64,000 nucleotides of DNA from positions 414 through 64,413 of IMG/VR virus record IMGVR_UViG_3300028388_004484. The stretch is one strand, 5' to 3'. The translations under genes were made by a program, and so were the position numbers. The notes under the pieces were generated by a model. It saw only the letters and a program-made list of their open reading frames with translations, was not told where the DNA came from and ran no database searches. Positions 1 through 50,566 of this stretch are shown in pieces; positions within the stretch are counted from its first letter, which is position 1; every line of letters starts with the position of its first letter. The stretch comes from a virus (Duplodnaviria > Caudoviricetes).

Positions 1-20
1 TTAAAATCATCGGGTACGCC

Positions 21-923
21 ATGTCGATGGGGACGGTCATAGCGATGGCCGGCGACGAAGTGATTATGCCGGAAAACTCGTTCTTCATGATTCATAACCC
101 GTGGACCATTGCGATGGGCGACTACCAGGACCTTGCACAAGAATCCGAATTCCTGGAAGTCCTGGCGAATGAACTCGCTTTAATCTACGCGAACCGGACT
201 GGCCTTTCGCTTGCCCGGATCCGCGAAATGATGGACGCGGAAACGTGGTTGACGGCGCCGGAAGCGCTGGAACTTGGTTTTGTCGACCGCCTTACTTCCG
301 GGGTACGCTTCGAAGCAAGCCTTTCGAAGCGGGAAATGGAAGCCCTTTACAACATTCCCGACACGCTAAAAAACAATGTCGAAATGAGTAAGAAAAAGAA
401 TCTATTAAACGCCTTGACGGAAGCCGTCGAAAACTTCTTCGGATCCGCAAAGGAAGAAACGCCCGCGGAAGCGCATGAAGAAACCGCATCGACCACGACC
501 ACCGAAGAAGATATTCCCGGCGAAGATCCGGAAAATCATGCGGCGGATCCGGCGGAAAATAAAGCGGATGAACCCGCGGAAGCGATAACCGAAGAAACGG
601 AAGAAGTCGAAGCGGAAGAACCGGCCCCGGATCCAGAACTTATTGCGGCCCGCAAAAAAGTTAATAGCCTGGAAATGCGTGTGGCAGAATTGGAAGATTC
701 CATGCTACAGGTCGCCGGCTTTATTGATCGCCTTCCGGAAATGCTGGCGCAGAAAGATAAGTCAGAAGCCCTTGCCGCACGCCTTGTTTCCGTCGAAAAG
801 GCCATTTCTGAAAATTCGAAGGTCAAAGAAGGCCGAAGTAACAGCGTTCCCGGCGAAGCCCTTTCCGAAGCGGAAAAAACTTTCAAAGCAAAAATTAAGC
901 GGCCGCGGATCCCTACGGAATAA
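21..923 (+). CDS. ClpP-like prohead protease with acidic/coiled-coil scaffold C-terminus (5' truncated by the window edge)
   Basis: SMGTVIAMAG, FFMIHNPW and ETWLTAPEALELGFVD are ClpP-family motifs; directly upstream of the capsid gene. Confidence 0.9.
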   Translation: MSMGTVIAMAGDEVIMPENSFFMIHNPWTIAMGDYQDLAQESEFLEVLANELALIYANRTGLSLARIREMMDAETWLTAPEALELGFVDRLTSGVRFEASLSKREMEALYNIPDTLKNNVEMSKKKNLLNALTEAVENFFGSAKEETPAEAHEETASTTTTEEDIPGEDPENHAADPAENKADEPAEAITEETEEVEAEEPAPDPELIAARKKVNSLEMRVAELEDSMLQVAGFIDRLPEMLAQKDKSEALAARLVSVEKAISENSKVKEGRSNSVPGEALSEAEKTFKAKIKRPRIPTE

Positions 924-975
924 CCCCGGTTGCCGACTGGTGAAATAATAATTTTTTTCAAAAAAAAATCTGAAA

Positions 976-2184
976 ATGTTACATCAAATAGTGCCGAACT
1001 ATATTCCGTCGAATAATTCCTTTTTCTTTTCGGCGGATGAACTGAACAGCTTCCAGCGGGCGCAGTACGCAGATACCTTCGGCTTCTGGCAAAACCGCTT
1101 CCGGCTTTACTCCTATATGCAAATGAACAGCTTGCGAAAGTTCGTCGTGCATAGCCCGAAAGGCCATCCCCTTATGTGGCAGCCGTATAAGGCTTGCGCC
1201 GCCGATCCTACCGGGTCGCTGACGATCGGGCAGCGGGAAATTGAACCGACGCCGATCATGATTTTCGAACAGTTTTGCCACGATACGATTATCAATTCCG
1301 CTTTCCAGCACCTTATTCGCTGGGACGCTTCCGGGACCGAAGACATGGACCCCGAAATGATGCAAATTTTCGGGCAATTGGTTGATGAACTTCTTTCGAA
1401 CGCGGCCTACGGATTCCGCCTTGCCCTTACTTCCGGGCAGCTTTACGACGTCGACGCCGTGACGTATTCCGCCGATAACCCGGCGAATATTACGGACCTG
1501 TTTAAGCGCACGCACGGTTCTGTCCGGGGGTGGGTGAAATTGGTAACGGACCTTGCGCAGGCGGAATACCCCCACTTGGATTTAGCCCTAACTAACGACG
1601 GTGATTTTAACGCCCTGGGCGACTTTACCGGCGACATTGTCGACCTGCTGGATGCCCTTAAGTCGAACGCTACGAAGAAATTCCGGACCCTGATAAACCG
1701 CGGCGGCATCGTTCGCGGATCCGGGCAGGTATTCCAGCCGCTGGTAGTCCTTTCGGATTCCTTTTATAACGCCGTAGTCGACTACCACAATGCGCAGGCT
1801 GTTACCCCGGCCACGAATTCGATGCGGATCGTTCAGCGCGAAGAACGGGTGCCCGGAAGCGATACCCCGACGATCGTTTACTACCTTGACAACCGCCTTC
1901 CGATCATTCCCCTTTCTGATATTTCCGGCTTCGACCAGTACCTGGCCGGCGACACGCATTTCGCGGGAATCGTTGCAAGCGGAAACATTCAACTCGGCAC
2001 CAGCTTCACGCAGATTCCGGAAGATATTGAAAACAACGGTATGGGCTTCCTTATCGCCCGGAATAACAACGCGACCGATGCGAACTTCGGGCAGTATGCT
2101 ATTCGAAGCACGGCCCTGGGCGTGTCGGCTATTGCGGATCCGGAATACATGGTTTCAACCGTGAATTATACCGAGCCGGCATAA
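976..2184 (+). CDS. major capsid protein (putative)
   Basis: 402 aa ORF directly after the protease/scaffold, followed by a strong hairpin; call is from synteny. Confidence 0.7.
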   Translation: MLHQIVPNYIPSNNSFFFSADELNSFQRAQYADTFGFWQNRFRLYSYMQMNSLRKFVVHSPKGHPLMWQPYKACAADPTGSLTIGQREIEPTPIMIFEQFCHDTIINSAFQHLIRWDASGTEDMDPEMMQIFGQLVDELLSNAAYGFRLALTSGQLYDVDAVTYSADNPANITDLFKRTHGSVRGWVKLVTDLAQAEYPHLDLALTNDGDFNALGDFTGDIVDLLDALKSNATKKFRTLINRGGIVRGSGQVFQPLVVLSDSFYNAVVDYHNAQAVTPATNSMRIVQREERVPGSDTPTIVYYLDNRLPIIPLSDISGFDQYLAGDTHFAGIVASGNIQLGTSFTQIPEDIENNGMGFLIARNNNATDANFGQYAIRSTALGVSAIADPEYMVSTVNYTEPA

Positions 2185-2224
2185 GGGCGCCACGATAGTA
2201 ATGTCTTGCTTCTTAATATAAATT

Positions 2225-2250
2225 GGTAAGGGCGATAAAACGCCCTTACC
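2225..2250 (+). terminator. hairpin after the capsid gene (terminator or stability stem)
   Basis: GGTAAGGGCG-ATAAAA-CGCCCTTACC, perfect 10 bp stem, weak U tail. Confidence 0.55.
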
Positions 2251-2272
2251 TACCTTCTAAAATCAAAAAGTT

Positions 2273-2839
2273 ATGCCCGATTTTTCTGGTTCTCTTAACG
2301 ACATATCGACGAATACCGTTTGCGCGGATAAGGGCGGTCTTTTAACCGTCTATTGGATCCCCGAAAGCGACATCGACTGGTCGACCGTTACCTGGGATGA
2401 TGCCGGCTACGCGGTTACGGCCTGGGCCATGCTAGCCATGGCGACCTGGAACAAGATCGAATTCGAACGGACCGCCGGCCGGCTGGACGCCCTGTATACG
2501 GAAGAAAACGGATACTACGAAGTATCCCTTCTGAACCTTCTTTTTTCTGGTCACTCCGCTGCCAGGTCTGTGGCGATCGGTCAGGCGATTCCCGTCTGTA
2601 ATATCGTCGCACAGGTATTTGACAACAACGGCAACGCCCGCATTTTAGGCAAGGAATACGATTCCGGCGCGTGGGTTAATCCCCTGAAAAATTGCCGCAT
2701 TACGCGACACCTGGATACGACCGGCGGCTTCGGCGCCGCTGACGATAAGGCCCGGGACGAATTCGACCTTACGGCGCAGCACCTGCTGCCGCTTCCGTAT
2801 TCAACCGTTTCCCTGTCGACTATGGAAACCCTGCTTTAA
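2273..2839 (+). CDS. major tail (tube) protein, putative
   Basis: 188 aa, N-terminal C-x3-GG-hydrophobic motif as in Bacteroidota phage tube proteins; beta-rich. Confidence 0.55.
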   Translation: MPDFSGSLNDISTNTVCADKGGLLTVYWIPESDIDWSTVTWDDAGYAVTAWAMLAMATWNKIEFERTAGRLDALYTEENGYYEVSLLNLLFSGHSAARSVAIGQAIPVCNIVAQVFDNNGNARILGKEYDSGAWVNPLKNCRITRHLDTTGGFGAADDKARDEFDLTAQHLLPLPYSTVSLSTMETLL

Positions 2840-2849
2840 TCTTTAAAGT

Positions 2850-3095
2850 ATGGGTAGAAGAAGAAAAAAGCGATATGAATACCGGCCGACGGCCGAAGCT
2901 GTGGAAACCCCGCGGACAATAGCCTGGAATGGTGTTCATATCGCCATTGGTAAAACGGTAACGATAAAGCGGACGCCGCCGGCCCTTCCGAAGGTGGTCC
3001 GGGAAGCTACGCCGGAAGAATACGAAACCCTTTTTGAAGAAAAGGGGCTGACGAATCTTATCGAAAAAGTTGAAATTTCCGAAGAAGAAGAATAA
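2850..3095 (+). CDS. hypothetical protein
   Basis: ORF abuts the portal start. Confidence 0.6.
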   Translation: MGRRRKKRYEYRPTAEAVETPRTIAWNGVHIAIGKTVTIKRTPPALPKVVREATPEEYETLFEEKGLTNLIEKVEISEEEE

Positions 3096-4412
3096 ATGTT
3101 CACCTTAAAGAATCCTTTGCCGCAAGCGATCCGGGACAATGCGCTTCTGCGAAATTTTTACCGGGAATATAACCTTGTGCCGTATGCCGGTTCTTCAAGT
3201 TATAGCGGCCATTCTTTTTTGCGGATTCTTTGCGACCTTTACGAACTTTCGCCTTCGCACGGAACCTGCATCGAAGATAAGCGATTCTGGGCTTTTGAGG
3301 GCGATCTTTCCGTCGTACCTAAAGGAAGAAGCGGGTTAAAGTCGGAAGATAGCCAGGAAGCACTTCCTGTGGCCGAACAGGAAGCTTTTGTCGATGAATA
3401 CGAAGCGGCCGGGCTTGACTTTTCAAAGCTGGCCGAAATCGTTTCTGTATGTTCTTTGAATGAGCAAAAAACCGGGAACGCCTTCCTTCGCTACCGAGAA
3501 ATTCAAGTCGGAGCGGCCCGGGTTGTCCAGGTCATGCCATTGGATCCGGTCGAAGTCATGTACTTGAATACGGCGCCCGGGGAACCGCGTAGCGTCGTTA
3601 TTAGTAAGGATTTTTTCGCCGGCAAATTTCACAATGAAAGGCCGCCGGAAGTTGTACGGGTTTATCCGGGATTTTCCGAAGGGCAGAACTACCGGGAAAC
3701 GGTTTTCCATTGGAAGAACAAGCGCGACGGATCCGATTGGTATGGGCGCCCTTCTACTTTGCAGACCCTTTACTGGCAGTACGTCGAATGGAAGAAAGCG
3801 GAAACTGAAGGGAAAATATCCGGAACGGAAACGACGGCTAAATATATCTTCGGAGCGATGAAACCGAACCCCCTGGCACAGGCCGTCGACGGCGAAGATC
3901 CTGAACAGGAATTCGCACGCTGGGCCGCGAACCTTCGGAAGATAGTAACGGCGAAAGGGGAAATAGAAGATGTCGAAGGTGTCGGCTTTATCGGATACCC
4001 CTTCGAAGGCCAAGCGCCTACACTTTACAAAATGGACGTTTTCCGAGATTCGAATTACCTGGAAACAACTATAAATTTTGCTTCCGACTATATCTACGCA
4101 TCGCACAGGTGGGGAAAAGCAATAAGCGGATTTAGTCAAGCGGCGGCGAATATCGGCGGCAATGTTTTGATCGACGAATTTTTATTCCGCAACGCAAGCG
4201 CTATTAAGCCCTTGCAAAGGAAATGGTCGAATAGAATGAAGCGGGTTTTTACCCTTATCGCCGATTTTACCGGCGGAAACCGCCTTCGGGATTACGGGAT
4301 AAAATTCGAAGATAAGGTCGAAAATTTAGTCGAAAGCTTAAAAGATGACACTATTAACGAAGAAGGAAGTACAGACTTTATCGAAGATAGGCCAGGACCT
4401 ACCGATCTGTAG
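3096..4412 (+). CDS. portal protein
   Basis: 438 aa; LYELSPSHGTCIEDK and WYGRP motifs as in Bacteroidota phage portals. Confidence 0.75.
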   Translation: MFTLKNPLPQAIRDNALLRNFYREYNLVPYAGSSSYSGHSFLRILCDLYELSPSHGTCIEDKRFWAFEGDLSVVPKGRSGLKSEDSQEALPVAEQEAFVDEYEAAGLDFSKLAEIVSVCSLNEQKTGNAFLRYREIQVGAARVVQVMPLDPVEVMYLNTAPGEPRSVVISKDFFAGKFHNERPPEVVRVYPGFSEGQNYRETVFHWKNKRDGSDWYGRPSTLQTLYWQYVEWKKAETEGKISGTETTAKYIFGAMKPNPLAQAVDGEDPEQEFARWAANLRKIVTAKGEIEDVEGVGFIGYPFEGQAPTLYKMDVFRDSNYLETTINFASDYIYASHRWGKAISGFSQAAANIGGNVLIDEFLFRNASAIKPLQRKWSNRMKRVFTLIADFTGGNRLRDYGIKFEDKVENLVESLKDDTINEEGSTDFIEDRPGPTDL

Positions 4413-4998
4413 CATGGCCGATATTCAACAGGCCGAAATTTCGCAGCGCCGGCAGGTTCTGGGAAAAGACTTTTACGACCTTCTTTTATCTTCGGCCACC
4501 GATTATTCCGGAACGCCGGAATACGAAAAGGGAACGACTTATGTTGACGGCGATGTTGTTTTTTTTGGCGGAACGGTTTATCAGGCAAACAAAACGACGG
4601 CGGCCCTTCCAAGCTATAAAGAGGACTGGTTGCTTGCTCAAAAATTCGCAGATTCCGACCTGGAAAAACTATGGACCACCTTCTTAGGCCGTTACCTTTC
4701 ATTGATAGTGGTTAAAAATTCAATGGCGCCGGCGGCTACGAAGATAAAGTCCGGAAACATCGTCCGGGTCGACGGCGAACAGGTCCGCGGCGCCGACGAA
4801 ACAGAACGGGCGGAACTCGCAACGTGGCTTTCCGCGCAGATTAAAATAACGTTCGATAATATGCACGACTTTATCCTGGAAAATAGGAACGTCGTGGTGT
4901 ACCAACTTTATAAAGGCCTGGAAGGCCTGCAAGATGATGAAATAACGCTAAATAACGACGCTCAAAGGAGCGATAAAGGTAATTATTGGGCGGTATGA
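4345..4998 (+). CDS. head-tail adaptor with inserted CBM5/12-like module
   Basis: IQQAE..R.VLG.DFYD.L adaptor-like segment; insert YEKGTTYVDGDVVFFGGTVYQA...W. Confidence 0.55.
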   Translation: MTLLTKKEVQTLSKIGQDLPICSMADIQQAEISQRRQVLGKDFYDLLLSSATDYSGTPEYEKGTTYVDGDVVFFGGTVYQANKTTAALPSYKEDWLLAQKFADSDLEKLWTTFLGRYLSLIVVKNSMAPAATKIKSGNIVRVDGEQVRGADETERAELATWLSAQIKITFDNMHDFILENRNVVVYQLYKGLEGLQDDEITLNNDAQRSDKGNYWAV

Positions 4999-5285
4999 TC
5001 GAAGCGGAAAAAAGCTTTAAAGCGCGGGTTTTTTCTTCGGTTATTAAGCAGGGCGGCCGGCTGGCGCCTAAAGGTATGGCCGAAGCCCGACTTAAGGAAT
5101 GCGAAAAATGTGAATACGCCGGAAAGGTCCGGCCGCTTCCGAAGTTAGAATTAAGGGGATGCACCCTTTGCGGATGCCCCTTTATTACGAAGCCCTTTAT
5201 GCTTGAATTTTTAGGAAATCCGACGGCTTGCCCGCACCCGGAAGGGAACAAATGGGAAGAAGTCGACACATATTTTTTGGAATAA
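4986..5285 (+). CDS. small Cys-rich (Zn-binding) protein
   Basis: RLKECEKC, CTLCGC and CP..W pattern. Confidence 0.6.
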   Translation: MGGMIEAEKSFKARVFSSVIKQGGRLAPKGMAEARLKECEKCEYAGKVRPLPKLELRGCTLCGCPFITKPFMLEFLGNPTACPHPEGNKWEEVDTYFLE

Positions 5286-5298
5286 AAAATTTTGAACC

Positions 5299-6012
5299 AT
5301 GAGTTTTGATGTGCGTGAATATGGCCGAATTAAGGCGAACCCCGAAGAGCTGGGCAGCTTCGTTTCGGTAGACAAAAAAGAATATTATGGAACGGAACCC
5401 GGTTACGATAGTGTAACGACTTCCGGTTTTTCGGGCGCCGTTTCGAATATTGTTTTCGAAGGGAACACCCTTACCCTGGAAAATCCCATTACGGTAGATT
5501 CCGACGCTGACGCCGTTCTTCTGCAAGCCGAAATCGTTAAGGCCCTGACCACTAACGGAATTGTAGAAGAATTTCAACCCTGGGTAAAGGTCACGAACGC
5601 TTCCGGCGACGACTTTACCGTCGAACATATCGGTGTCGGCACGCTTTCTGCCGTCGGCGGCGAAGCTACGACCCGAAAAACGACCATTATCAATGCGACG
5701 AATTACACCGGATCCTTTGTTGCTACGCTTGGCGTCGTTTCGGTGAACGGCGCGGCCGGCACCGCTCTGGCGAACGACCCATACGCATGGTCAGGGACCC
5801 CGGCGACGGATAACGCGACCGCGGCGCAGTTGGCGACGGATCTTGGCCTGGCCCTTACGGCCCAGGGCTTCGACTACAAGTCGATTGCCGTTTCCGCGAA
5901 CACCACTGACAGCGACTACGATGTTACTGTCTACGGCCGCAAAAGTCAAAAAATCACTATCGGCGGTACGGCCCTTTCCGAAGCTACCGGAAGCGCGCAG
6001 GAATTTGTATAA
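5299..6012 (+). CDS. putative structural protein
   Basis: Ala/Thr/Gly-rich beta-type composition in the structural operon; hairpin downstream. Confidence 0.5.
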   Translation: MSFDVREYGRIKANPEELGSFVSVDKKEYYGTEPGYDSVTTSGFSGAVSNIVFEGNTLTLENPITVDSDADAVLLQAEIVKALTTNGIVEEFQPWVKVTNASGDDFTVEHIGVGTLSAVGGEATTRKTTIINATNYTGSFVATLGVVSVNGAAGTALANDPYAWSGTPATDNATAAQLATDLGLALTAQGFDYKSIAVSANTTDSDYDVTVYGRKSQKITIGGTALSEATGSAQEFV

Positions 6013-6075
6013 CATATTTCGGAAGGTAGAAGCGGCGGCCCTTCCTTCGCTTTTACCTTCCTTAAACTTCCCATT

Positions 6076-6879
6076 ATGAAAAGGAATGCTTTAGTTATTC
6101 CACTTCTATTTCTGTGCTTTATTTCGTTTGGGCAAAATATACCTTCGTGGATGTTTACAAGCGGGATCGAAAGTGATGACCGCTTTCTTCTTTTTACGGA
6201 AGGATGGCGCCGGACGGGGCGGTATATAACGGGGGAAACGCTTTTTAACCTTTTTGACCAAAGATACGATGAAAGGTACAAGCCTTTTGAACCCCCGCAG
6301 CGGCAAACAATTTTCATCCCCGGGGGAAGTAATAGGACTGTAACTAAGGAAGAAATTGGAAGGTATGGGGTGGATATTATCGTCGGATCCGGGGTCACCT
6401 TTCTTACCCTGGAATGCGTGGATAGCACCTACGTAGGCGAAGCCGAAGCGGTAATAAACCTTTACACGAACTCTATATTAACCGGAATTGGAACGGTTAC
6501 GGTTGCGGTTACTGACGGATGTTCAAGCGATCTTGTTATTTACTCCCTTAATGAGATTGCATATAATTCCCCTTATATCACCTTTTTTAACGGCGGCGGC
6601 TCCTCTTCTTATTTGGCCAGCTATAGGTACAACCACAAACAAAGCATTTCCGAAACCTATACCGGGGGAACTACGGACGAAAACGGCGACATGACAAAAG
6701 TTAACCCCTTCGCTGGAACTTCGGCCCGAATTTCCGTCAATGTCTTAGGAACAACCCCCTACCATGCGCAGGTTCATACCTTTGCCGGCGGGAATTATAC
6801 CGTTCGATTTTTCAATATGGACGGGACCCCGGCCGCATCGACACAAATTGATTTCTACGTCATCGCTACATACAACTAA
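6076..6879 (+). CDS. signal-peptide-bearing fibre-like protein 1
   Basis: MKRNALVIPLLFLCFISFG|Q signal; N-terminal domain paralogous to the next gene. Confidence 0.6.
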   Translation: MKRNALVIPLLFLCFISFGQNIPSWMFTSGIESDDRFLLFTEGWRRTGRYITGETLFNLFDQRYDERYKPFEPPQRQTIFIPGGSNRTVTKEEIGRYGVDIIVGSGVTFLTLECVDSTYVGEAEAVINLYTNSILTGIGTVTVAVTDGCSSDLVIYSLNEIAYNSPYITFFNGGGSSSYLASYRYNHKQSISETYTGGTTDENGDMTKVNPFAGTSARISVNVLGTTPYHAQVHTFAGGNYTVRFFNMDGTPAASTQIDFYVIATYN

Positions 6880-8619
6880 ATGACCATGCAAAAGATATTG
6901 TTTTTTTTCTTATTAATCGTCGTAGTTAATTCCGCGGGCGCGCAAAGCCTTCCTGATTGGATGTATACGAAGGATTTTGAAAGTGATGACCGAATTTTGA
7001 TCTTTAAAGACGACTGGAAAAAAAAGGGGCGGTATATGACCGGCGCAGATTTTTTCAATCTGCTTGACGGGAAATATGCGAATGCTGGTAGCGACGACCA
7101 GACCCTTTCTTTGGTTGGCAATACGCTTTCGATTGAAAGCGGAAATTCGGTTGACCTTTCTTCCCTGGCGGCGACAACTTATTGGGACCTTAATACGGAT
7201 ACCCTAACGAATAACACGGGGAACCTTGTTCTTATTCAACCAGAACAGAAATTACATACCAGGGTTGATGCATTATCAGGTGCATTTTCAGAATTGACAA
7301 TGGATACCGTCAATGTTGTTTCACAAGTACAAAGCTCGCTAGGAGATCAAAGTTATCTCAATCTTAGGCGAACAGAAACCTTTGGTTGGGTGACTGCTTC
7401 TGCCTATAAAATTGACCCTTACCAGTACTCTTCCTTTCAAGCAAGGGATGGCTATTTTGACGTTTATGTCGAGGATGATTTCGCTGCCGCACAAATGCGG
7501 ATCAAAACGGCAGATTCCTACATTGACGTTTCAGAATTAGGCATAGGTGATATAAGCCCCGACGCAAAGCTTGACGTAGCCGGAAGCGTTCGAATAGACT
7601 CTTTTCTGGTCAACCCGACCGACGGTTACGGCGCGGTGGGCGAAGTTATTACCAGGACGGCAAACGGCTGGGAATGGTCACCGGTTGCCGGATATTGGGA
7701 CCTAAATACCGATACCCTTACGAATAACGCCGGAGCTACAGTTTACACTACAGCAGGTGATGTTTATACGGAAGCAACCGGGGTGACTGGCGTTTATGTT
7801 TCCTCATTAGAACAGGATAGCATGATAACTACCCTGAAAAATTCCAACGGCCTGGATTATGCACAATTATATCTTAGGCAAACGGCGTCAACTGGAAACG
7901 TACAACTTTCGGTTTATGACGATTCCCCTTATGGCTATTCAGAAATAGATTTAGCCGACAATTATTTCAATGTAGAAATCAATGACGGCGGGGGGGCTTC
8001 TTACTTTAATTTACGAACGACAAACGGCGGTTACATTTCAACGCCTGGAAACTTCGGAATAGGTGATTTTTCCCCTGATGCAAAATTGGACGTACAGGGT
8101 TCTATCCGTTTAGATTCCTTTTTAATTAACCCCACGGACGGATACGGCGCGGTGGGTGAAGTTATTACCAGAACCACCAACGGCTGGGAATGGCAAGCCC
8201 CTGCCTACCATAATAACTACATTGACGCCACACCTTCCACGGTGACGATAACGAATACTACAAATTACTTCACCGTCGGCGGTTTTGCTCAGTTAATTTC
8301 TTCCGGGGCCTTCACCGAAACGGACAGCACAATTACTTACACCGGCGCGGCGACAATTCCGGTTCGAATTGACTGGCACGTCTCATTTTCTGGCGATCCT
8401 TCTGATGAATTGGAAGGTGAGGTTTTTATTAACGATGTTGCGACAGGTATTTCGTGGGATCGCAAGCTAGGGACCGGCGGCGACGTTGGTGCAGCTTCTA
8501 CGGCCGGCATTTTCAGCCTTTCGCAGAATGACGTTATCAAGGTAAAGGTTCAGAACCTGACGGCCGCAAACAACATTTCAGTTACAAAGTCGTCGGTCGT
8601 GGTCGTAGAAATAAAGTAA
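6880..8619 (+). CDS. signal-peptide-bearing fibre-like protein 2 with an internal duplication of about 170 aa
   Basis: MQKILFFFLLIVVVNSAGA|Q; DDQTLSL repeat; two copies of YWDLNTDTLTNN...GIGDxSPDAKLDV...GWEW; jelly-roll-like C-terminus. Confidence 0.65.
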   Translation: MTMQKILFFFLLIVVVNSAGAQSLPDWMYTKDFESDDRILIFKDDWKKKGRYMTGADFFNLLDGKYANAGSDDQTLSLVGNTLSIESGNSVDLSSLAATTYWDLNTDTLTNNTGNLVLIQPEQKLHTRVDALSGAFSELTMDTVNVVSQVQSSLGDQSYLNLRRTETFGWVTASAYKIDPYQYSSFQARDGYFDVYVEDDFAAAQMRIKTADSYIDVSELGIGDISPDAKLDVAGSVRIDSFLVNPTDGYGAVGEVITRTANGWEWSPVAGYWDLNTDTLTNNAGATVYTTAGDVYTEATGVTGVYVSSLEQDSMITTLKNSNGLDYAQLYLRQTASTGNVQLSVYDDSPYGYSEIDLADNYFNVEINDGGGASYFNLRTTNGGYISTPGNFGIGDFSPDAKLDVQGSIRLDSFLINPTDGYGAVGEVITRTTNGWEWQAPAYHNNYIDATPSTVTITNTTNYFTVGGFAQLISSGAFTETDSTITYTGAATIPVRIDWHVSFSGDPSDELEGEVFINDVATGISWDRKLGTGGDVGAASTAGIFSLSQNDVIKVKVQNLTAANNISVTKSSVVVVEIK

Positions 8620-8626
8620 GATACTA

Positions 8627-9844
8627 ATGAGGAATAAGGCGTTTATACTTCTTTTCTTTACCCTATCTATTTTTTCGGCTTGTAGATCACAGTCGGGGTT
8701 AATTGAAGTTGAATGCCTTCGCGGCGTTGAAATAGCGGGCAACTATTGTTACTTCTGCCCGCCGAACGGGTCGACGGTTTTTGACGGATTAAAAATAGAC
8801 TACGGAAACGGTCGCCTTCTTTATATCCGCAAGCCCTATGTGGCCCGTTTCCGGGACGCTGACAGTTTGACGGTTATCACCTTCGACCGCGAACAAAGGG
8901 CTTCGTTCAGGCTATCACAAACGGTCTACCCGACTATGGATACCTTACGTAGCATTATCGAAGCTTGCGCGGCGGATCCGGTAACGCCGGTCGATACGGT
9001 CGACTGCTGTCCGACGGTCGATACATTTATGGTAGTTGACGGGATCCTTTATTTTAGCCTTTCTTCCGAAGATGTCGTTTATTCCGCAAATATTTGCTGC
9101 GACACTGCCGGCGGCGTCGTTTCCGTTTATCGGCAATACTTCGCAGATGTCACCGGGGATACGCTAACGGTATCCGTTCATGGGGATACTTTACCCGGGA
9201 TAAGTCGGCATATCGCCGTATACGTCGAAGGGATCCGGCAGAAGGAAGGGCCGCCGGGGGCGGGGGACTATCAGTATTCGGATTCTACTATCGTTTTTAA
9301 TTATTCGCTTGCCGGCGAAGATGCATGGATATGGTTTATAGACCGCGCCGAAGGGATAACGACCTACCAGGAGTTTTTTACAGACGTTTCGGCCGATACG
9401 GTTTTAATATCGGGATCCTTCCCGGCGGACACGGCGCAAGTTAATGTTTTCGTCGAAGGGATCCGGCAGATACAAGGGGCGCCCGGATCCGGCGACTACC
9501 GGATTAACGGGAACAGGATCGATTTTAATTATACCCTTTCTTCGGAAGATGTCGAAGTATGGTTTATTGACCAAACGGGACCCCTTTCCATTTTTTCAGA
9601 AACTTTCCTTGATGCTACCGGAACAACGGTAACGGTTACGGCGAACGGCGGAACGATTCCGGCCTTAAATCAGGCGACTTTGGTTTTTGTCGAAGGATTA
9701 AACCAGCAGGAAGGAAGCGCCGGAGACTACGAAACATCCGGAAGTAATTTCAATTTCAAATATACGCTTTCTTCGGAAGATGTATCGACGCATTTCCTTA
9801 TCGGCACTACCGATATGGGGGTGCTTGGCCTTTTTCAAAATTAA
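8627..9844 (+). CDS. exported or lipoprotein repeat protein
   Basis: MRNKAFILLFFTLSIFSAC lipobox-like signal; three repeats of V(Y/F)VEG..Q..G...GDY...F.Y.L..ED; Cys pairs. Confidence 0.65.
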   Translation: MRNKAFILLFFTLSIFSACRSQSGLIEVECLRGVEIAGNYCYFCPPNGSTVFDGLKIDYGNGRLLYIRKPYVARFRDADSLTVITFDREQRASFRLSQTVYPTMDTLRSIIEACAADPVTPVDTVDCCPTVDTFMVVDGILYFSLSSEDVVYSANICCDTAGGVVSVYRQYFADVTGDTLTVSVHGDTLPGISRHIAVYVEGIRQKEGPPGAGDYQYSDSTIVFNYSLAGEDAWIWFIDRAEGITTYQEFFTDVSADTVLISGSFPADTAQVNVFVEGIRQIQGAPGSGDYRINGNRIDFNYTLSSEDVEVWFIDQTGPLSIFSETFLDATGTTVTVTANGGTIPALNQATLVFVEGLNQQEGSAGDYETSGSNFNFKYTLSSEDVSTHFLIGTTDMGVLGLFQN

Positions 9845-9850
9845 TAACCC

Positions 9851-12800
9851 ATGGAGCAAAGAAGAAACGATAAAGTAAAGCGGATCCTTTTTTTACTTAT
9901 CATGCTGGAACTTTTCGCGGTCGTTATTTTCGCGCAGGACCCGAGAACGCGACCCCTTCCGAAGCGACTTTCCCCGGCTTCGGCTTCCGGGCAGTTTATT
10001 ATCGCCGATGGTAGCCTGGATGGGCAATGGAATTCGGCCGTTATTTGGGATGGAACTTATCTTCTTCTTAACGGCGATACGGTCGCCGTTCTTCCCCTGG
10101 GCGCTATCGTCGAAATAGACGGCGACACAACAAACGAATTACAAATACTTTCGATTTCCGGGGATACGCTTACAATATCGGACGGGAATTCCGTTATACT
10201 GCCGGCCGGCGGCGGGGGAACCGATGACCAGACGCTTTCTTTGGTTGGAACAGACCTTTCAATCGAAAGCGGGAATACGGTAAGTTTAGCGGCTTTACAG
10301 GACGGAACCGGGACGGATGACCAGACGCTTTCCATTTCAAATGATACTCTGACTATCGAAAGCGGTAATTTTGTCGTTCTTCCGGGCGGCGGGACGGATG
10401 ACCAGACCCTTTCTTTAGTTACGAACACCCTTTCAATCGAAAGCGGAAATTCGGTCGACCTTTCGCCATATTTGGACAACACGGACGCGCAGACGCTTTC
10501 TTTGGGCGGGACGGTCCTTTCTATTACCGGCGGTAATTCCGTCGATCTGGCGCCCTTGCAGGACGGGACAGGAACCGACGATCAGGTTCTGTCGATCTCA
10601 AATGATACCCTTTACATTGAGGACGGGAACAACGTCGTTTTAACGCCCTATTTGGACAATACAGACGCGCAGGCCCTTTCTTTGGTGGGAACGGATCTTT
10701 CTATTACCGGCGGCAATACCGTCGACCTGGTAAGCTTGCAGGACGGATACTTGGGCGCTGATATTGCGGCGAATACGGCGACGTATGACGCAGGCGGAAC
10801 GGCTGATTTCAAAATAATTGATCCTGACAGCATTTACTTTGATATTGATGGCGCTGGTGGTGTTATGGACTATTTTTTAATGAGTGAAAGCGGCCTATAT
10901 TGGGGCGTTGGCAATACAGCTTCTTTCCGTTCTTACTTTTCAGCAAGTTCTACGGGAACGACGGTTTGGACGATTATCGGGTCAGATATGCAGATTAATA
11001 TGCTATCATCCGCAAGCGACTTTTCACTTACCGTGGGTGGGGATATTAACTTTGGGAATTCAAGCACTGACGCCATTAATATATATGGCCGTTATGCCCT
11101 TGCGAACGATTCGCCAAGTATTATTTCTGGGGATACGTCAGTAATGATTTGGCGCGGAACCGGGGCAACTACTATTTCAGAAATGATACTTTTGGATGAC
11201 CTAATATCGAGCGCAGGCACGGACGATCAGGTTCTGTCGATCTCAAATGATACGTTGAGCATTGAAAGCGGAAACTTCGTCGTTCTTCCTTCCGGCGCGG
11301 CCGATAATTGGGGAACGCAGTCCGTTATTTCATCTTCTTGGTTTTCCGGAACCGGCATAGTGGGCGACACCCTTGATTTAGCTCAAAACGGCGCTACTGC
11401 CGGCCAAACGATTAAATGGTTTGATGGCTTCGGATGGCTTCCGGGAATAGATAACAATACGAACCTAACAAACGAACAAGTCCAGGATTATTTCGCCCAG
11501 CTTTTAGTAGGAAATACGGAAACCGGCATTACGGTAACTTATGACGACGCCGGCGACCTTTTGAATTTTGAGGTAACCGGCGGCGGCGCGACCGGCGGCG
11601 GGATCTACGGAGGTGATGGCAATTTAGGGGCGGTTGGCTTCCAGGATTATTTGAGTGTAGGAATTGATTCTTCGCAAGTCCTTAGCTTCGAAATTGACGC
11701 AAGCCCTACCTTTTGGGGCGGTGGGCTAAGGATTTACACCGACTACAATAATGACGATGCGATTTCTACGGCCTTTAAGATCGCCACCCCTTCCGATAGT
11801 CTTTGGTTTGAACACTTCAACCAGGGAACGAAAATGGTTTACCAAACTCCTACTTCGCAGTACACCGATTTTAGTATAGAAGTTAAGCCGTCGACCCTGG
11901 CCGCTTCCGGCGGTCTTGACCTTAACGGCGGTTTAAACGTGGATTCCGTCGGGCTTGTGAATTTTTGGAACAGGACGACGACGCAAAGGGACCTTTTGCC
12001 GGCGTCCATTATCGACGAAGGAGATCTATTTTATAATACCACTTTAAGCGCCTTTCAGTATTGGGACGGTTCAGCTTGGGTAACATTCCCGGGCGGCGGG
12101 ACCGGCGGCATTTATAGCGGGGACGGTTCCTTAATTGAGGTTACCAGTGTAACCGTTCCGGCCAATGATTACCTTGAATTTTTAGTAACCCCGGGTCCTA
12201 CCAATCATGGAAAGGCGATCCATATTGACTTAGGTTCCCAAACTGACGATATGACTTCCATTCCCTTTTCGATAACGTCTAATAGCAATGATTCCCTTTA
12301 TTTTGAATTCAAGGATGTGCAGACGCCGACGATCGCCTACCAAGCCGGCGGCGGCAATGCTTTCGGCCTTGCTATTGACGCCCTGGGCGGTCCTTCTGCC
12401 GTAGCTACCCGGGGCAGCGGCTGGCTTGAATTGAACGGGTCAAGGGTTGACACGCTGGGCCTTTTCAAACCCCTTTCGGCCACGACAGCAACACGCAATA
12501 CATGGGGCGTGTCAAACGTCTGGCAGCCGACTTCTGGGTATATGTTCTATAATACGGACAGTCTAAAATATCAATACTACGACGGTTCTTCATGGCAAAC
12601 CTTCCCCGGATCAGGGGGCGGCACTTCCGGCGTTCAATCCGTTTCGGGTTCTGGCGCTATTTCCGTGGGCGGAACGGCCGCGGATCCGGTCGTATCATGG
12701 AATGCGGGCAATATTGTAATTAACGAGGCAATAGATTTTGACGATTACATTTTATGGTATGGCGCCCTTTCACGCCGGGCGACGGTCGACACCCTTTTAG

Positions 12801-13201
12801 GCTTTGATGTTTTTCAGTTAAACGGGGTTGACCTTGAAGTATCTCAACGCCTTGACGGCGACGCGACTTATTCCCTTAGTCTTATGCCTCTGGGCGTTGT
12901 TCCGCCGGCAAGTGATGTGAGCAACACGACGACTTTTACGGCTACGGCCGGAGAAATAAATTTGGTCGACGTAACAAGCGGCACCGTTTCCGTGACGCCA
13001 CCTGCCGGGCCGGCGGCCGGCGATCGTTTCGCCGTCGTAGATAGCCGGAATAATGCCGGAACAAACAACATCACAGTCAACTTTTCCGGGTCGACGCAAA
13101 AGCTTTGGGGGACCGTTCAAAACTATGTCCTAAGCACAAACGGGGAATACGCCGAATTTGTGTACATGGGCGCGAATACGGGTTGGATCCTTACTAAATA
13201 G
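9851..13201 (+). CDS. large signal-peptide-bearing tail fibre/adhesin-like protein
   Basis: KRILFLLIMLELFAVVIFA|Q; many DDQTLS/DAQTLS repeats; YNTT...FQYWDGSAW fibre motifs; C-terminal segment resembling T4 gp9/gp10-type modules. Confidence 0.7.
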   Translation: MEQRRNDKVKRILFLLIMLELFAVVIFAQDPRTRPLPKRLSPASASGQFIIADGSLDGQWNSAVIWDGTYLLLNGDTVAVLPLGAIVEIDGDTTNELQILSISGDTLTISDGNSVILPAGGGGTDDQTLSLVGTDLSIESGNTVSLAALQDGTGTDDQTLSISNDTLTIESGNFVVLPGGGTDDQTLSLVTNTLSIESGNSVDLSPYLDNTDAQTLSLGGTVLSITGGNSVDLAPLQDGTGTDDQVLSISNDTLYIEDGNNVVLTPYLDNTDAQALSLVGTDLSITGGNTVDLVSLQDGYLGADIAANTATYDAGGTADFKIIDPDSIYFDIDGAGGVMDYFLMSESGLYWGVGNTASFRSYFSASSTGTTVWTIIGSDMQINMLSSASDFSLTVGGDINFGNSSTDAINIYGRYALANDSPSIISGDTSVMIWRGTGATTISEMILLDDLISSAGTDDQVLSISNDTLSIESGNFVVLPSGAADNWGTQSVISSSWFSGTGIVGDTLDLAQNGATAGQTIKWFDGFGWLPGIDNNTNLTNEQVQDYFAQLLVGNTETGITVTYDDAGDLLNFEVTGGGATGGGIYGGDGNLGAVGFQDYLSVGIDSSQVLSFEIDASPTFWGGGLRIYTDYNNDDAISTAFKIATPSDSLWFEHFNQGTKMVYQTPTSQYTDFSIEVKPSTLAASGGLDLNGGLNVDSVGLVNFWNRTTTQRDLLPASIIDEGDLFYNTTLSAFQYWDGSAWVTFPGGGTGGIYSGDGSLIEVTSVTVPANDYLEFLVTPGPTNHGKAIHIDLGSQTDDMTSIPFSITSNSNDSLYFEFKDVQTPTIAYQAGGGNAFGLAIDALGGPSAVATRGSGWLELNGSRVDTLGLFKPLSATTATRNTWGVSNVWQPTSGYMFYNTDSLKYQYYDGSSWQTFPGSGGGTSGVQSVSGSGAISVGGTAADPVVSWNAGNIVINEAIDFDDYILWYGALSRRATVDTLLGFDVFQLNGVDLEVSQRLDGDATYSLSLMPLGVVPPASDVSNTTTFTATAGEINLVDVTSGTVSVTPPAGPAAGDRFAVVDSRNNAGTNNITVNFSGSTQKLWGTVQNYVLSTNGEYAEFVYMGANTGWILTK

Positions 13202-13228
13202 ATTTTTCAAATATTAAATTTTCATACT

Positions 13229-13582
13229 ATGAGTAGTAAAGTAGGAATTGAGCAAACGAAGGAAATGCGGGACTTCCTTATCGACCTTGCGAACCTTTTG
13301 GATAAGGAACTGGCCGACGGTTTCCAATGGCAGCAGGACCTCATTTCGACCGCATCGCTTTGGCGGTCCGGATATGCTGCCTTTGAAGGGGCGAAGGAAA
13401 TTCCCGCCGAATTTCTGGACATGGACGACCAGGAGCGCGCCGAATACATTTCCGGTTTTTCGCGCCTGGACATTCGCGACGATAAGGCTGAACAACTTGC
13501 CGAAGTCATTATGGAAGAATCCGCAAACATCTTCTTTTCGATCAAAAGAGTGGCGGACGCTATAAAGCAGGCAAAAGGATAA
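13229..13582 (+). CDS. hypothetical protein
   Basis: ORF followed by a UUCG hairpin. Confidence 0.6.
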   Translation: MSSKVGIEQTKEMRDFLIDLANLLDKELADGFQWQQDLISTASLWRSGYAAFEGAKEIPAEFLDMDDQERAEYISGFSRLDIRDDKAEQLAEVIMEESANIFFSIKRVADAIKQAKG

Positions 13583-13633
13583 CGGCAGGGCGCTTCGGCG
13601 CCCTTCCTATTTGGCAGCAAAAAGCAAGTTCCC

Positions 13634-14557
13634 ATGAACACCCGAATGACGCTGCCCGGAAGCTTTAAAAAGCACGGAGACTTTTTAAGGACCCTTTCTG
13701 AAAAAGATATTATCCGGATCCGGGAAGCAAAGGAACAAAGGAAAGGGATTTTTCGTCTTTTAATATTTTCAGACGCCCACGGCCTTTTAGTCGACCCAAA
13801 GGCCAGAGATTGTTTATTTGCCGTTATTCAAGAAAACGACTTCGACGAAATTGTCGACAACGGGGATACCCTTGACTTCCCTTATCTTTCCAACCATTCG
13901 AAAAAAATTAACCGGGTAAATGACGAAACGGATTTACTTCGTAATTACGACGAAATAAAGGAAATCGAATTTACCCGGCGGACCTTTTTCGAACCCCTTC
14001 GGGAAATATCATCGGCGAAGATCGTAAAACGGGACGGCAACCACGACGAAAGGATAACAAAGCCGAAGAAGTATTCTAAAGAACAACTGGAAAGGCTAAA
14101 TTCGATTTTCATCGCTTACGATTCTTCGAACTTAGGGCGGATCCTTCGACTTCCCGAATTAGGGGTCGAATACGACCCGGCGCCAATACGCAAATACTTC
14201 GATATGTTTTTTCTTGTTCACGGCCTTTCGGTTTCAAAGTATTCGGCCTATAAGAACCTGGAACAATATCACCGAAGCGGAAGCAGCGGCCATACTCACC
14301 GCCTAAATTCAACTTACGTTGAAAAGTGGGGGAAAACTATGTGCTGGATCGAAAGCGGATGCCTTCGATTAACGGAATCCGTGGAATATTTCCCTACGGC
14401 GGTAGTTGCAAATTGGCAGCAGGGTTTTGTTACGGTAACTTTCGACCTTCGGGAAGATCCGGAAAAGCCTACCTTTTACGCAAAAACGCACCCGATAATT
14501 AACGGAAGCACGGAGTATAATGGGAAGGTTTATTCTTATAGGGACTTCCGGAAATAA
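13634..14557 (+). CDS. calcineurin-like metallophosphoesterase
   Basis: DAH, GDTLD, GNHDE, HG and GHTH motifs. Confidence 0.85.
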   Translation: MNTRMTLPGSFKKHGDFLRTLSEKDIIRIREAKEQRKGIFRLLIFSDAHGLLVDPKARDCLFAVIQENDFDEIVDNGDTLDFPYLSNHSKKINRVNDETDLLRNYDEIKEIEFTRRTFFEPLREISSAKIVKRDGNHDERITKPKKYSKEQLERLNSIFIAYDSSNLGRILRLPELGVEYDPAPIRKYFDMFFLVHGLSVSKYSAYKNLEQYHRSGSSGHTHRLNSTYVEKWGKTMCWIESGCLRLTESVEYFPTAVVANWQQGFVTVTFDLREDPEKPTFYAKTHPIINGSTEYNGKVYSYRDFRK

Positions 14558-14582
14558 AAACGGCCCGGGAATCCCCCGGGCC
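14552..14582 (-). terminator. intrinsic terminator of the repressor transcript
   Basis: GGCCCGGG/CCCGGGCC stem; the A-run at 14552-14560 is the U tail on the minus strand. Confidence 0.75.
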
Positions 14583-14611
14583 ACTAAAAGCAAGTTAAAA
14601 TGAACATTATA
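14552..14611 (-). ncRNA. candidate antisense RNA in the repressor 3' UTR
   Basis: minus strand reads GUUCAUUUUAACUUGCUUUUAG directly before the terminator; complementary to lytic gene leaders. Confidence 0.5.
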
Positions 14612-14947
14612 TTAATGGTCATTTTCTTTTAATTGTTTTTTTAGACGGCGGATTTCTTCCCGAAGTCTTTTATTTTCCGCTTCCGGGTCATTAACATCTT
14701 TTAACAGCATCGGAACGTATGGCGTATCAAAGAATTCCGGATTAATTCCCAGCGCTTCCAACTTCGCTAAACGGGTTCTTATTAACCTGGAAAAGGCTGG
14801 GGCGGTTTCCGTGGCCCATGTGGAAACTCTGCTTTGGGTACGGTCTAAAAATTTTGCTATATCTGCCTGTGTTAACCCTTTTTTGTCTTTAAGGTGCATT
14901 AGGACAAGGTTTAATCGAAAGCCGGCTTCTTTGGTTTGATCTTTCAT
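14612..14947 (-). CDS. XRE-family HTH repressor (CI-like)
   Basis: GLTQADIAKFLDRTQSRVSTW HTH plus C-terminal coiled coil; the only convincing minus-strand gene; divergent from the replication operon. Confidence 0.8.
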   Translation of the reverse strand: MKDQTKEAGFRLNLVLMHLKDKKGLTQADIAKFLDRTQSRVSTWATETAPAFSRLIRTRLAKLEALGINPEFFDTPYVPMLLKDVNDPEAENKRLREEIRRLKKQLKENDH

Positions 14948-14995
14948 AGATTGCTACTTTCTATTCGTTTTATATGGAAACCATTGTAAAATGAG

Positions 14996-15023
14996 TATCT
15001 TTGTGGAATTAATAGCAAAGATA
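14996..15023. promoter_or_regulatory. pair of oppositely oriented Bacteroidota -7 boxes (genetic switch)
   Basis: TATCTTTG at 14996-15003 (+) and CAAAGATA at 15016-15023 (TATCTTTG on minus). Confidence 0.6.
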
Positions 15024-15056
15024 AGTTTTTTATAATAAAACATATAACTTAAGAAG

Positions 15057-15320
15057 ATGAAGCGGATTTATATCCTTTTTTTCGATAGCGGTTTTTCAAT
15101 GCACACCAGTAAGAAAAAAGCCCTTCGGGCCGTCGAAGAACGGCTGGAAAACCCACGGGTAAATGGTTTCAAGTTTAACTACCAGCGTCTTTGCGAAGCC
15201 CTTCCAAAAGCAAATCCCATCGGGAAGGTAACTATTAAAGGCGAAGATGATCGAAGCGCTTCGATCGTAATGGCGCCCTTGAATTACGATGTTTTAGTAA
15301 CTATTCCCGGCGAAGAATAA
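15057..15320 (+). CDS. hypothetical protein (first lytic-side gene)
   Basis: ORF divergent from the repressor. Confidence 0.6.
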   Translation: MKRIYILFFDSGFSMHTSKKKALRAVEERLENPRVNGFKFNYQRLCEALPKANPIGKVTIKGEDDRSASIVMAPLNYDVLVTIPGEE

Positions 15321-15340
15321 CGCATCTAAAAAGATATTAT

Positions 15341-15382
15341 ATCCGATTTATTTGATTTTTCGGATTTTTGGCACTAACTTAG
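15341..15382 (+). promoter_or_regulatory. class B promoter/operator ATCCG-N-TTTATTTGA-N5-CGGAT
   Basis: repeated at 18643, 27187, 30646, 30764 and 34508. Confidence 0.6.
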
Positions 15383-15404
15383 CGGTCCATTAAAAGCAAG
15401 AAAT

Positions 15405-16538
15405 ATGAAATGGACCGCTTCACTGCCGCTCGCGGCGATTTCCGTAAACTTTCCTTCCCTTACCGTAAAGGATGCCGTCGTTCTGGATTGGTTTACTTCA
15501 TTTGTCCATACCGGACGAATGGAATACAAAGATTCCGGCGGCCGTCTTTTTTATTGGGTGTCCTACGAAGAAATCATTACAGAAATTCCGATGCTTCGCT
15601 GGACAACTACGGATCCGGTTTACCGGGCTTTTCGCCGCATGGTTAAGGCCGGAATTTTTGATGCCCATCCGGACAATGCTAAGGAGAACAAAGCCTTTTA
15701 TGCTTTCGGGCCTGGATACGAAAAAATCAGGGCTTTCGATCCTATCGAATTTTTTAACGCTTTCGGCCGGAAAGGGACCCCCGGTCAAAATCAGGAAGAA
15801 CGCGAAGGGACCCCCGGTCAAAATAACGGCCGACCCCCGGTTAAAAAACCGGGTAATAATAATATAAGTAATATTAGTACAAATATAGTCCAAAACGATT
15901 TTGGACATCAATCTTTTGACCTTCCCGGAATCGAAGAAGAAAAAGAAGAAGGCGGCCCGGATCTTTTCGAAGGGGTCGATATATCCTTCGAAAGCTTTTG
16001 GAACGCCTACGGACGAAAGGAATCGAAGAAAAGGGCGAAAAGATCATGGAAGAACCTTCCTAAATATAAAAAAAAGTTGGCGATCGAAAAAGTCGCGCCT
16101 TACGACGAATTCCTTAAAGCGAATCCGTGGCGGGACAAGATGCTTCCTACGACCTGGATTTCCGGGGAACGTTGGAACGATGACTTTTCGACAAAAGCTT
16201 CCGGTTCTATTTCCGTTGAAGATTTAATCGACGTAGAAGCCGATGCGGCCCTTGTAAGGAGCTTTAAGGCCTTCCGGGGTATAGTCGCCGATAAGGCACC
16301 GGAAGTACTTTCCTGCGCCGGGCAATTAACGCTCAGTCAATATATCGAAGTCGCTACCGGTCGCGCCTTCCCGGGATATAAAAAGAAAATGACTACGGCG
16401 GGCTTAAAGTCGAAGATCCTTTCCGCGGTCGAAGCCATGGGAACTATCGACGCATATAAGGTCCGGCGCCCGGACTTTAAGATGATCGACTACCTAAAAG
16501 ACTACATTCTTTTTTCTGGAAAAAAGATTTACAAGTAA
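15405..16538 (+). CDS. replication initiator protein
   Basis: N-terminal wHTH-like region, central iteron-encoded linker, FESFWNAYGRKESKKRA...PTTWISGERWND domain typical of phage initiators. Confidence 0.8.
   Translation: MKWTASLPLAAISVNFPSLTVKDAVVLDWFTSFVHTGRMEYKDSGGRLFYWVSYEEIITEIPMLRWTTTDPVYRAFRRMVKAGIFDAHPDNAKENKAFYAFGPGYEKIRAFDPIEFFNAFGRKGTPGQNQEEREGTPGQNNGRPPVKKPGNNNISNISTNIVQNDFGHQSFDLPGIEEEKEEGGPDLFEGVDISFESFWNAYGRKESKKRAKRSWKNLPKYKKKLAIEKVAPYDEFLKANPWRDKMLPTTWISGERWNDDFSTKASGSISVEDLIDVEADAALVRSFKAFRGIVADKAPEVLSCAGQLTLSQYIEVATGRAFPGYKKKMTTAGLKSKILSAVEAMGTIDAYKVRRPDFKMIDYLKDYILFSGKKIYK
15774..15900 (+). repeat. replication origin: three iterons GACCCCCGGTYAAAA plus AT-rich element
   Basis: iterons at 15774, 15807 and 15832 followed by ATAAGTAATATTAGTACAAATATAG inside the initiator gene (lambda O-like layout). 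Confidence 0.75.
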
Positions 16539-24360: not shown

Positions 24361-24379
24361 ATTTGAAAAAAAGCAAGAC

Positions 24380-33207: not shown

Positions 33208-33279
33208 GACCCCGTGGGCAAGTGGTCAAGCCGTCGGCCTTTCAAGCCGAAGTCGCCGGTTCGAATCCGGTCGGGGTTA
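33208..33279 (+). tRNA. tRNA-Glu (UUC)
   Basis: acceptor GACCCCG/CGGGGTT, D arm GGC/GCC, anticodon arm TCGGC-CTTTCAA-GCCGA, T arm GCCGG-TTCGAAT-CCGGT; CCA not encoded. Confidence 0.92.
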
Positions 33280-50565: not shown

Positions 50566-50566
50566 A

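Follow-up and report, generated by a model that had tools for sequence, protein, structure and literature searches.

In the textbook account, tailed phages are assembled wholly in the cytoplasm. The exported proteins encoded in the late or tail regions of coliphages (Lom and Bor of lambda, Llp of T5, and Cor), like those of Sec-dependent lysis (signal-arrest-release endolysins and spanins), are small, non-fibrous and non-virion, and serve in exclusion, serum resistance or lysis. The present analysis concerns four consecutive genes, referred to as open reading frames (ORFs) A to D, in a 64,000-nucleotide stretch of a Caudoviricetes genome (IMG/VR record IMGVR_UViG_3300028388_004484, positions 414 to 64,413; the whole stretch is called the window). 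We favour A to D as tail fibres that are routed through Sec, a known kind of protein in a new form. More specifically, we give a probability of about 0.5 to the reading that they are exported, mature in the periplasm and join the phage particles at lysis as outer fibres.

Parallels are found amongst the phages of Cellulophaga. In phi18:3 (NC_021794.1) three adjacent genes just 5' of the endolysin, gp085-087, all encode a leader followed by Gln and are labelled in GenBank as structural, 'based on experimental MS/MS proteomics analysis' (MS/MS, tandem mass spectrometry), while none of ten other phi18:3 proteins annotated in this way and checked here has a leader. Homologues of gp085 are labelled structural in 38 Cellulophaga phage records, most of the alignments beginning at residue 1. 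In phi10:1 (NC_021802.1), which belongs to another family, four consecutive genes 3' of the tail genes, gp091-094, are likewise MS-annotated and encode a leader and Gln, so that, over both phages, seven proteins with a leader carry a virion annotation drawn from MS/MS. A further phage, phi38:2, has two leader-bearing genes 3' of its portal gene. As with A to D, the genes of phi10:1 and phi18:3 form runs (of four and three, respectively) that close the structural block, with leaders, Gln and fibre-like or sugar-cutting content, and gp085 and gp086 of phi18:3 contain short motifs found in B and D. On the other hand, there is no significant similarity between the two sets of proteins (best BLAST E 0.04), and phi10:1 and phi18:3 are lytic, belong to other families and encode pectate-lyase-type enzymes, which A to D do not. 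The phi10:1 and phi18:3 records make no remark on the leaders. No description of leader-bearing tail fibres was found in the literature, though the source study of the Cellulophaga annotations may discuss them.

Temperate Bacteroidota phages with leaders predicted to expose Gln are also described from Porphyromonas gingivalis, where prophages carry five Q-rule genes of unknown function for which a role in modifying the outer membrane was proposed (Matrishin et al, 2023; PMC10367356). Unlike A to D, these genes are not described, in the part of that report that deals with them, as fibre-like, as clustered in a virion operon or as present in the virion. A different likeness is to the tailspike proteins TSP1-4 of phage CBA120 and the gp9/gp10 complexes of T4, through an XD1 domain in D and adjacent fibre genes, of which two encode a shared module at the N-terminus. 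In TSP4, however, the XD domains are N-terminal, and the relevant section of the structural study has docking occur via XD2 and XD3 rather than XD1 (PMC8825819). TSP1-4 and T4 gp9 and gp10 also differ in being leaderless and in assembling in the cytoplasm.

All four genes are on the + strand, separated from one another by 0, 7 and 6 nt (Table 1). Each product starts with Lys/Arg and a hydrophobic, uncharged stretch of 11-16 residues, with a small residue at -1 preceding Gln +1 (4/4), and so the four consecutive fibre-like genes with export-type leaders described in an earlier, sequence-only reading of the window were recovered with their coordinates, tight packing and Gln at +1. As set out in the portion of PMC10653852 that bears on this, most substrates of Sec and signal peptidase I in Bacteroidota expose Gln, which glutaminyl cyclase converts to pyroglutamate, and this Q-rule is a trait of the Bacteroidota. 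A strict rule (net positive start, uncharged run of at least 9 residues, small residue at -1, Gln at +1) is obeyed by A, B and C, and D breaks it solely through one Glu within its 16-residue run. Over five phages, that is the window and the four relatives described below, the rule is passed by 15 of the 17 proteins of the gene cassette. The two failures, D and its homologue in relative L004, which has an Asp, each have one acidic residue in the run and still end FA/Q and FG/Q, where the slash marks the predicted cleavage site; the small residue and Gln after the run are therefore present in 17/17. Outside the cassette the rule is passed by 0/82 + strand ORFs in the window and by 0/62 ORFs in the relatives' loci, and the chance of four adjacent hits among 90 ORFs is 3.4e-5. 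The leaders of C and D are found in all four relatives, where their sequences drift and Gln +1 is retained. As the alignments of C and D to the relatives begin at residues 1-11, the leader is part of the conserved ORF. That each of A to D is translated with a Bacteroidota-type Sec leader is well supported, and it is very probable that they are exported, a prediction made from the leaders, with the cleavage sites predicted from the (-1, +1) pattern.

The four true relatives (contigs of L003/L094, L004/L095, L096 and L097+L098) came from the repeat search described below and a scan with D-type proteins. Their capsid proteins are 46-58% identical, and all four have the same order of tail-tip gene, small exported protein, protease, capsid, 188-residue gene, portal, three small genes, C and D. 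The head module (21..6012) that stands immediately 5' of A to D is thus syntenic in 4/4. The cassette itself is patchy: C and D occur in all five phages, A and B are unique to the window phage and absent from all four relatives, and the genes 3' of D vary, the relatives having more leader-bearing genes there (284/287 and 847-858 residues). Both the C-terminal end of D and the accessory genes vary from phage to phage, which fits cassette exchange at the business end, as an anecdote from five genomes. Beyond these, scans of IMG/VR with the single proteins B, D and capsid returned no locus, tblastn with the capsid protein, C and the fibre of another contig (L005) gave no match amongst cultured phages, and the capsid alignment found no prophage in species genomes.

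The N-terminal D region (Q.P.TR...) is conserved, with the first 150 residues 38-45% identical across the lineage. The sequence motifs reported previously for the mature proteins were all found again, with eight DDQTLSL-type repeats in D and one in B, GIGDxSPDAKLDV once in each of the two long repeats of B, which are followed by a C-terminal beta domain, and two YxYWDGxxW motifs, FQYWDGSAW and YQYYDGSSW, in D. The last 104 residues of D were modelled at a predicted local distance difference test score (pLDDT) of 62-76, and this model matches residues 75-176 of CBA120 TSP4 with a Foldseek E of 4e-7; VIA-align gives Z 14.0 with a root-mean-square deviation of 3.2 A over 101 residues at 23% identity. 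A baseplate protein of a Klebsiella phage is matched with Z 10.8, and T4 gp9 and gp10 more weakly (E 0.06-0.08). According to the portion of PMC8825819 that covers it, residues 80-178 of TSP4 are the XD1 domain, with T4 gp9 as nearest relative. The gp9/gp10-like tip proposed for D from its sequence is thus confirmed at fold level, by comparison of the model, as an XD1 domain of the T4 gp9/gp10 type. Conversely, the idea that this domain might be a docking platform like XD2 or XD3 is weakened, as it matches XD1 instead.

A and B share a module directly C-terminal to the leader, with 48% identity over 56 residues (E 2e-16) and 51% over 45, which agrees with the common domain of about 45 residues that had been noted before. 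A search with its profile against 1.84 billion representative proteins returned A and B alone, plus one spurious match of 13 residues. By sequence this is a real shared module, private to this phage. Prediction of a complex between three D C-terminal domains and three A/B modules scored 0.02, which gives no verdict and is uninformative either way. The C-terminal part of A belongs to no known family, a word-indexed protein search found no homologue of A, and the ESM Atlas gave no usable lead for it (scores up to 0.80). C has a Cys-rich N-terminal domain, in which Cys30, 41, 44 and 114 are retained in 5/5 homologues, followed by three modules of about 75 residues; its structure model is poor (pLDDT 47). 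The Cys pairs suggested earlier hold for A and C, with 2 and 8 Cys in the mature part, and do not for B and D, which have none. The lipobox-like end that had been seen in the C leader was not upheld: Cys19 is found in only one of five homologues, and C was rejected as a lipoprotein. Since the other four homologues end in a small residue and Gln, cleavage at CRS/Q is preferred. For A to D nothing came from sequence searches of Pfam, NCBIfam and the PDB, and among PHROG profiles there was a tail-fibre match at E 8.9e-4.

Searching IMG/VR with the repeat alignment gave 66 loci. Of the repeat-carrying ORFs with a 5' end, 54/63 are leaderless, 8/63 have a leader and Gln and 1/63 has a leader without Gln, the 63 loci being counted without de-replication. 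In unrelated phage contigs (L005 and L104/L105) fibre-like genes with a leader or a lipobox stand between the tail and lysis genes, and in L104/L105, from another siphophage lineage, the protein in the tail-tip position ends in the XD1-type domain of D (53-55% identity).

No separate promoter was found for A to D, and no strong terminator between them and the head genes. Sigma-70-like promoters and terminator-like hairpins are no commoner in 1-15500 than in shuffled sequence, and the Bacteroidota -33/-7 promoter consensus has 4 matches in the window against 2.05 expected and none in 1-15500. Given this, and with the first strong + strand hairpin coming only after the ORF that follows D (Table 1), A to D look to be co-transcribed with the head genes as part of a late operon.

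The O-glycosylation motif of Bacteroidota, D(S/T)(A/I/L/V/M/T) as stated in the passage of PMC8550257 that defines it, occurs 29 times in the 2267 residues of mature A to D, or 1.28 per 100 residues, compared with 0.22 per 100 in the other + strand proteins, a difference much of which is explained by composition. In C the count is 9 against 2.0 in its own shuffles, of which 0/1000 reach 9, while in D the excess is weak (14 against 8.4; 38/1000) and in A and B the motif is not above their own shuffles. The membrane-anchored protein encoded at 34560-35249 is also rich in the motif (4 in 229 residues).

The route that we propose for A to D, as the outer fibre set of the phage and its host-recognition appendages, is not one that has been described for tailed phages. 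Sec would export the four proteins and signal peptidase I would cut before Gln, which host glutaminyl cyclase would then convert to pyroglutamate. Folding and trimerisation would take place in the periplasm, where disulfides could form in A and C, and C and D may gain host O-glycans. Heads and tails would be built in the cytoplasm, and the fibres would join them when the holin opens the inner membrane or after lysis, which is the weakest step; the holin and amidase lysis genes would mix cytoplasm with periplasm at the end of infection. The position of the private module at the mature N-terminus of both A and B would fit docking of the two on one partner.

Attachment to the virion is favoured because of the place of A to D in the late operon, their conservation with virion genes, their fibre domains and the MS-annotated analogues. 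It is supported by the block of head genes, C and D kept in 4/4 relatives, by the occurrence of the repeat in 66 IMG/VR loci that are mostly ordinary leaderless fibres and by the presence of a canonical holin and amidase. There is also a body of evidence that weighs against it. Export of virion parts is not known from any tailed phage, and the Cellulophaga annotations could reflect co-purification. In two cultured Bacteroidota phages, P2559Y of Croceibacter and phi18:1 of Cellulophaga, the tail and fibre proteins are leaderless, which implies that the leader habit is lineage-specific. The structure matches of the D C-terminal domain include CpaA and StcE, secreted proteases in which the XD1 fold is a glycan-binding domain (PMC8825819, in its Table 2), and so the fold alone is no proof of a virion role. 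In L104/L105 (8891-12940) the proteins with D repeats or the D end domain have lipoprotein-type leaders (...LTSC, ...LAGC); the lipoboxes of the fibre-like neighbours there and in L005 suggest anchoring to the membrane, and a lipid-anchored fibre is hard to fit with a virion part. Finally the phage is temperate, with an integrase, and most of the proteins closest to the repeat region are bacterial and exported.

These bacterial relatives, together with the temperate lifestyle and the lipobox forms in other phages, are what speaks for the main alternative, in which A to D are exported and never enter the virion. As envelope or surface proteins of an infected cell or a lysogen they would instead bring about lysogenic conversion, mask receptors or exclude superinfecting phages, in the manner of the chromosomal 'tail fiber domain' proteins that Bacteroidota export. 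We consider this somewhat unlikely. A narrower repeat alignment identified 23 loci in species genomes, mostly from Saprospiraceae/Lewinellaceae, Flavobacteriales and Cyclobacteriaceae, and where the 5' end is intact a leader and Gln are present in 18/18. Amongst 115 neighbouring proteins scanned at eight of the ten loci with long flanks (two were left out) there is no phage hallmark family, only housekeeping neighbours; a small protein with a type IX secretion system (T9SS) sorting domain (Por_Secre_tail) is encoded immediately 5' of the fibre gene in 4/8, CHU_C or PorP/SprF genes are nearby in 4/8 and the fibre protein itself has Peptidase_S74 in 4/8. Among the best 118 of 569 matches to D (E up to 1e-10), at least 85 pass the strict leader test, 82 of these with a small residue and Gln, and about ten further leaders missed by the threshold were judged by eye; the dominance of leaders amongst these relatives indicates that the repeat family consists mainly of exported Bacteroidota proteins. 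Such chromosomal 'tail fiber domain-containing' proteins (Saprospiraceae, Flavobacteriales, Cyclobacteriaceae) resemble A to D in their leader and Gln, DDQTLSL-type repeats and YxYWDGxxW motif, but differ in having non-phage neighbours, another N-terminal domain and often a Peptidase_S74 chaperone at the C-terminus or a T9SS domain or partner. On a prophage-type contig, L001, a D-like gene is followed by one for a small T9SS protein (Por_Secre_tail E 2.8e-5, below the Pfam cut-off), whose E of 1e-41 to the profile of its own family is to be read with the L001 protein being one of the five sequences that built the profile; the T9SS sorting domain beside the D-like gene marks a cell-surface fate. 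The Porphyromonas prophage genes, read in the relevant part of that report as possible outer-membrane modifiers (PMC10367356), point the same way. Against a place in the envelope stands the absence from A to D of a T9SS sorting domain (Por_Secre_tail/CHU_C; Pfam up to E 1), of a conserved lipobox and of Peptidase_S74 (Pfam), which leaves nothing to carry them past the periplasm; the profile of the small C-terminal-domain proteins likewise has no match in the six frames of the window. In addition, C and D are syntenic in 5/5 phages within a late operon in which no separate promoter was found for them, A to D take up 7.1 kb or 11% of the genome, and the analogous leader-bearing Cellulophaga proteins are annotated as found in the virion.

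Two further explanations concern the leaders themselves. If these were uncleaved signal anchors, A to D would be tethered to the inner membrane and face the periplasm until lysis, for instance at a staging site. The Glu in the 16-residue run of D, the Asp in its L004 homologue and the lipobox forms of other lineages, which point to tethering, would agree with this, but a membrane span would be expected to be longer than these runs of 11-16 residues, and the small residue and Gln in 17/17 are the pattern of signal peptidase I, making such anchoring improbable. Less probable still is that the leaders go unused, through a downstream start or failed export, and that A to D are ordinary cytoplasmic tail fibres, as the 54 leaderless ORFs amongst the 63 phage repeat loci might suggest. 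The public gene call begins A at Met26 and omits the leader, and a Met occupies the corresponding position in B. However, the short stretch that separates the leader from that Met is conserved in A and B (QNIPSW and QSLPDW), which favours the upstream start of A, C has no in-frame Met after its start before residue 104, and leaders with Gln +1 are kept in all the relatives, the pattern being present in 0/144 other ORFs. The case of A (6076-6150) also illustrates how automatic annotation can conceal a leader. Overall, the interpretation first put on these genes is supported in part: export is well supported, and of the two fates offered, a fibre that matures in the periplasm is favoured, at about even odds, over a cell-surface structure.

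Extended from the window to a wide set of Bacteroidota phages, the proposal of Sec-exported fibres becomes a joint claim, which we advance tentatively as falling a little short of even odds: final assembly of the virion would occur outside the cytoplasm, with exported fibres bearing pyroglutamate, disulfides and perhaps host O-glycans docking at holin opening, and with modules swapped with T9SS-linked fibres of the host surface. What the window contributes is a complete temperate siphophage, the conservation of leaders through a lineage of five members, an XD1-type end on D and a connection to T9SS-linked host fibres. If the proposal is true, the parts of these phages that set host range could bear host-made pyroglutamate, disulfides and glycans that no cytoplasmic expression system reproduces, which bears on the engineering and production of Bacteroidota phages and receptor-binding proteins. 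A leader with Gln on fibre genes would then also be a simple mark by which uncultured phages could be given a Bacteroidota host. The repeat family would likewise tie phage fibres to the exported fibre proteins of Bacteroidota, a large group that is unstudied, and the cultured Cellulophaga phages allow a direct test of the fibre route.

At L069, L073, L080 and L084, from four bacterial genomes, and on L001 (12409-12969), exported fibre genes directly adjoin members of a family of proteins of about 163 residues that combine a leader with a T9SS sorting domain, and from this arrangement the two look like a fixed fibre-plus-anchor pair.

The phage record is a single contig of 64,413 bases whose ends share a 97-base repeat, indicating that the genome is complete, and it is that of a temperate tailed phage (siphophage) of 64.4 kb. 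A replication initiator and a primase/polymerase are also encoded (other features are given in Table 1). Its terminase is nearest to those of Croceibacter, Riemerella, Chryseobacterium and Cellulophaga phages (41-47% identity), which is consistent with a Bacteroidota host. As had been noted before, no fibre gene follows the two large tail-tip genes (59183-62466), and only ORFs of 66-156 residues are found 3' of them. The order of the modules is unusual: the tail genes (48013-62466), including those for the tape measure and tip, come first, then the genes for the protease, the capsid and the portal-like protein in that sequence, and then A to D; this order (window 1-6012 and 48013-62466) is conserved in 4/4 relatives.

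Table 1. Coordinates of the features of the window (aa, residues; a slash marks the predicted cleavage site; TM, template modelling score).
Feature	Position	Strand	Remark
ORF A, 267 aa	6076-6879	+	
A leader	aa 1-19, 6076-6132		...SFG/Q
A/B module in A	aa 20-66, 6133-6273	+	
ORF B, 579 aa	6880-8619	+	
B leader	aa 1-21, 6880-6942		...AGA/Q
A/B module in B	6943-7086	+	
DDQTLSL repeat in B, one copy	7081-7170	+	
ORF C, 405 aa	8627-9844	+	
C leader	aa 1-21, 8627-8689		...CRS/Q
ORF D, 1116 aa	9851-13201	+	
D leader	aa 1-28, 9851-9934		...IFA/Q
DDQTLSL-type repeats in D, 8 copies	10121-10741 and 11210-11299	+	
D C-terminal domain, XD1 fold	aa 1013-1116, 12887-13198	+	fold match
G+C-rich hairpin	13587-13604	+	after ORF 13229-13582; first strong terminator-like site 3' of D
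ClpP-type prohead protease	21-923	+	
Putative major capsid protein	976-2184	+	
188-aa protein		+	head module, after putative major capsid protein, before portal-like protein
Portal-like protein, 438 aa	3096-4412	+	structure: ESM Atlas TM 0.67-0.76 to Phage_portal-carrying clusters
Three conserved small genes after portal	4345-4998, 4986-5285, 5299-6012	+	
Integrase	24335-25597		
Amidase_3 endolysin	29356-29982	+	
Phage_holin_4_1 holin	35246-35710	+	
Large terminase	40039-41517		
Tape measure	55719-59183	+	
Two large tail-tip genes	59183-60283, 60280-62466	+	named Dit and Tal from position only

Right after the tail-tip genes, at 62985-63455, is a small lipoprotein-like gene of 156 residues (...NFSAC/G), with counterpart small exported proteins at the same site in the relatives (L096 1269-1613, L098 1056-1448); its product may serve in superinfection exclusion or as an accessory to lysis. 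In the head module, the first small gene after the portal (4345-4998) overlaps the 3' end of the portal gene by 68 nt, and its 217-residue product weakly resembles CBM_5_12 over one stretch (E 3e-4, below cut-off). An HNH-type endonuclease gene (50567-51241) lies within the morphogenesis region, between the gene for a 597-residue protein and the tail genes, and the window has one tRNA-Glu (TTC) gene at 33208-33280. Just 5' of the terminase genes there is a phosphoadenosine-phosphosulfate-reductase-like gene (37820-38992; PHROG 2302, E 4e-87), and Croceibacter phage P2559Y has such a gene in the same place.

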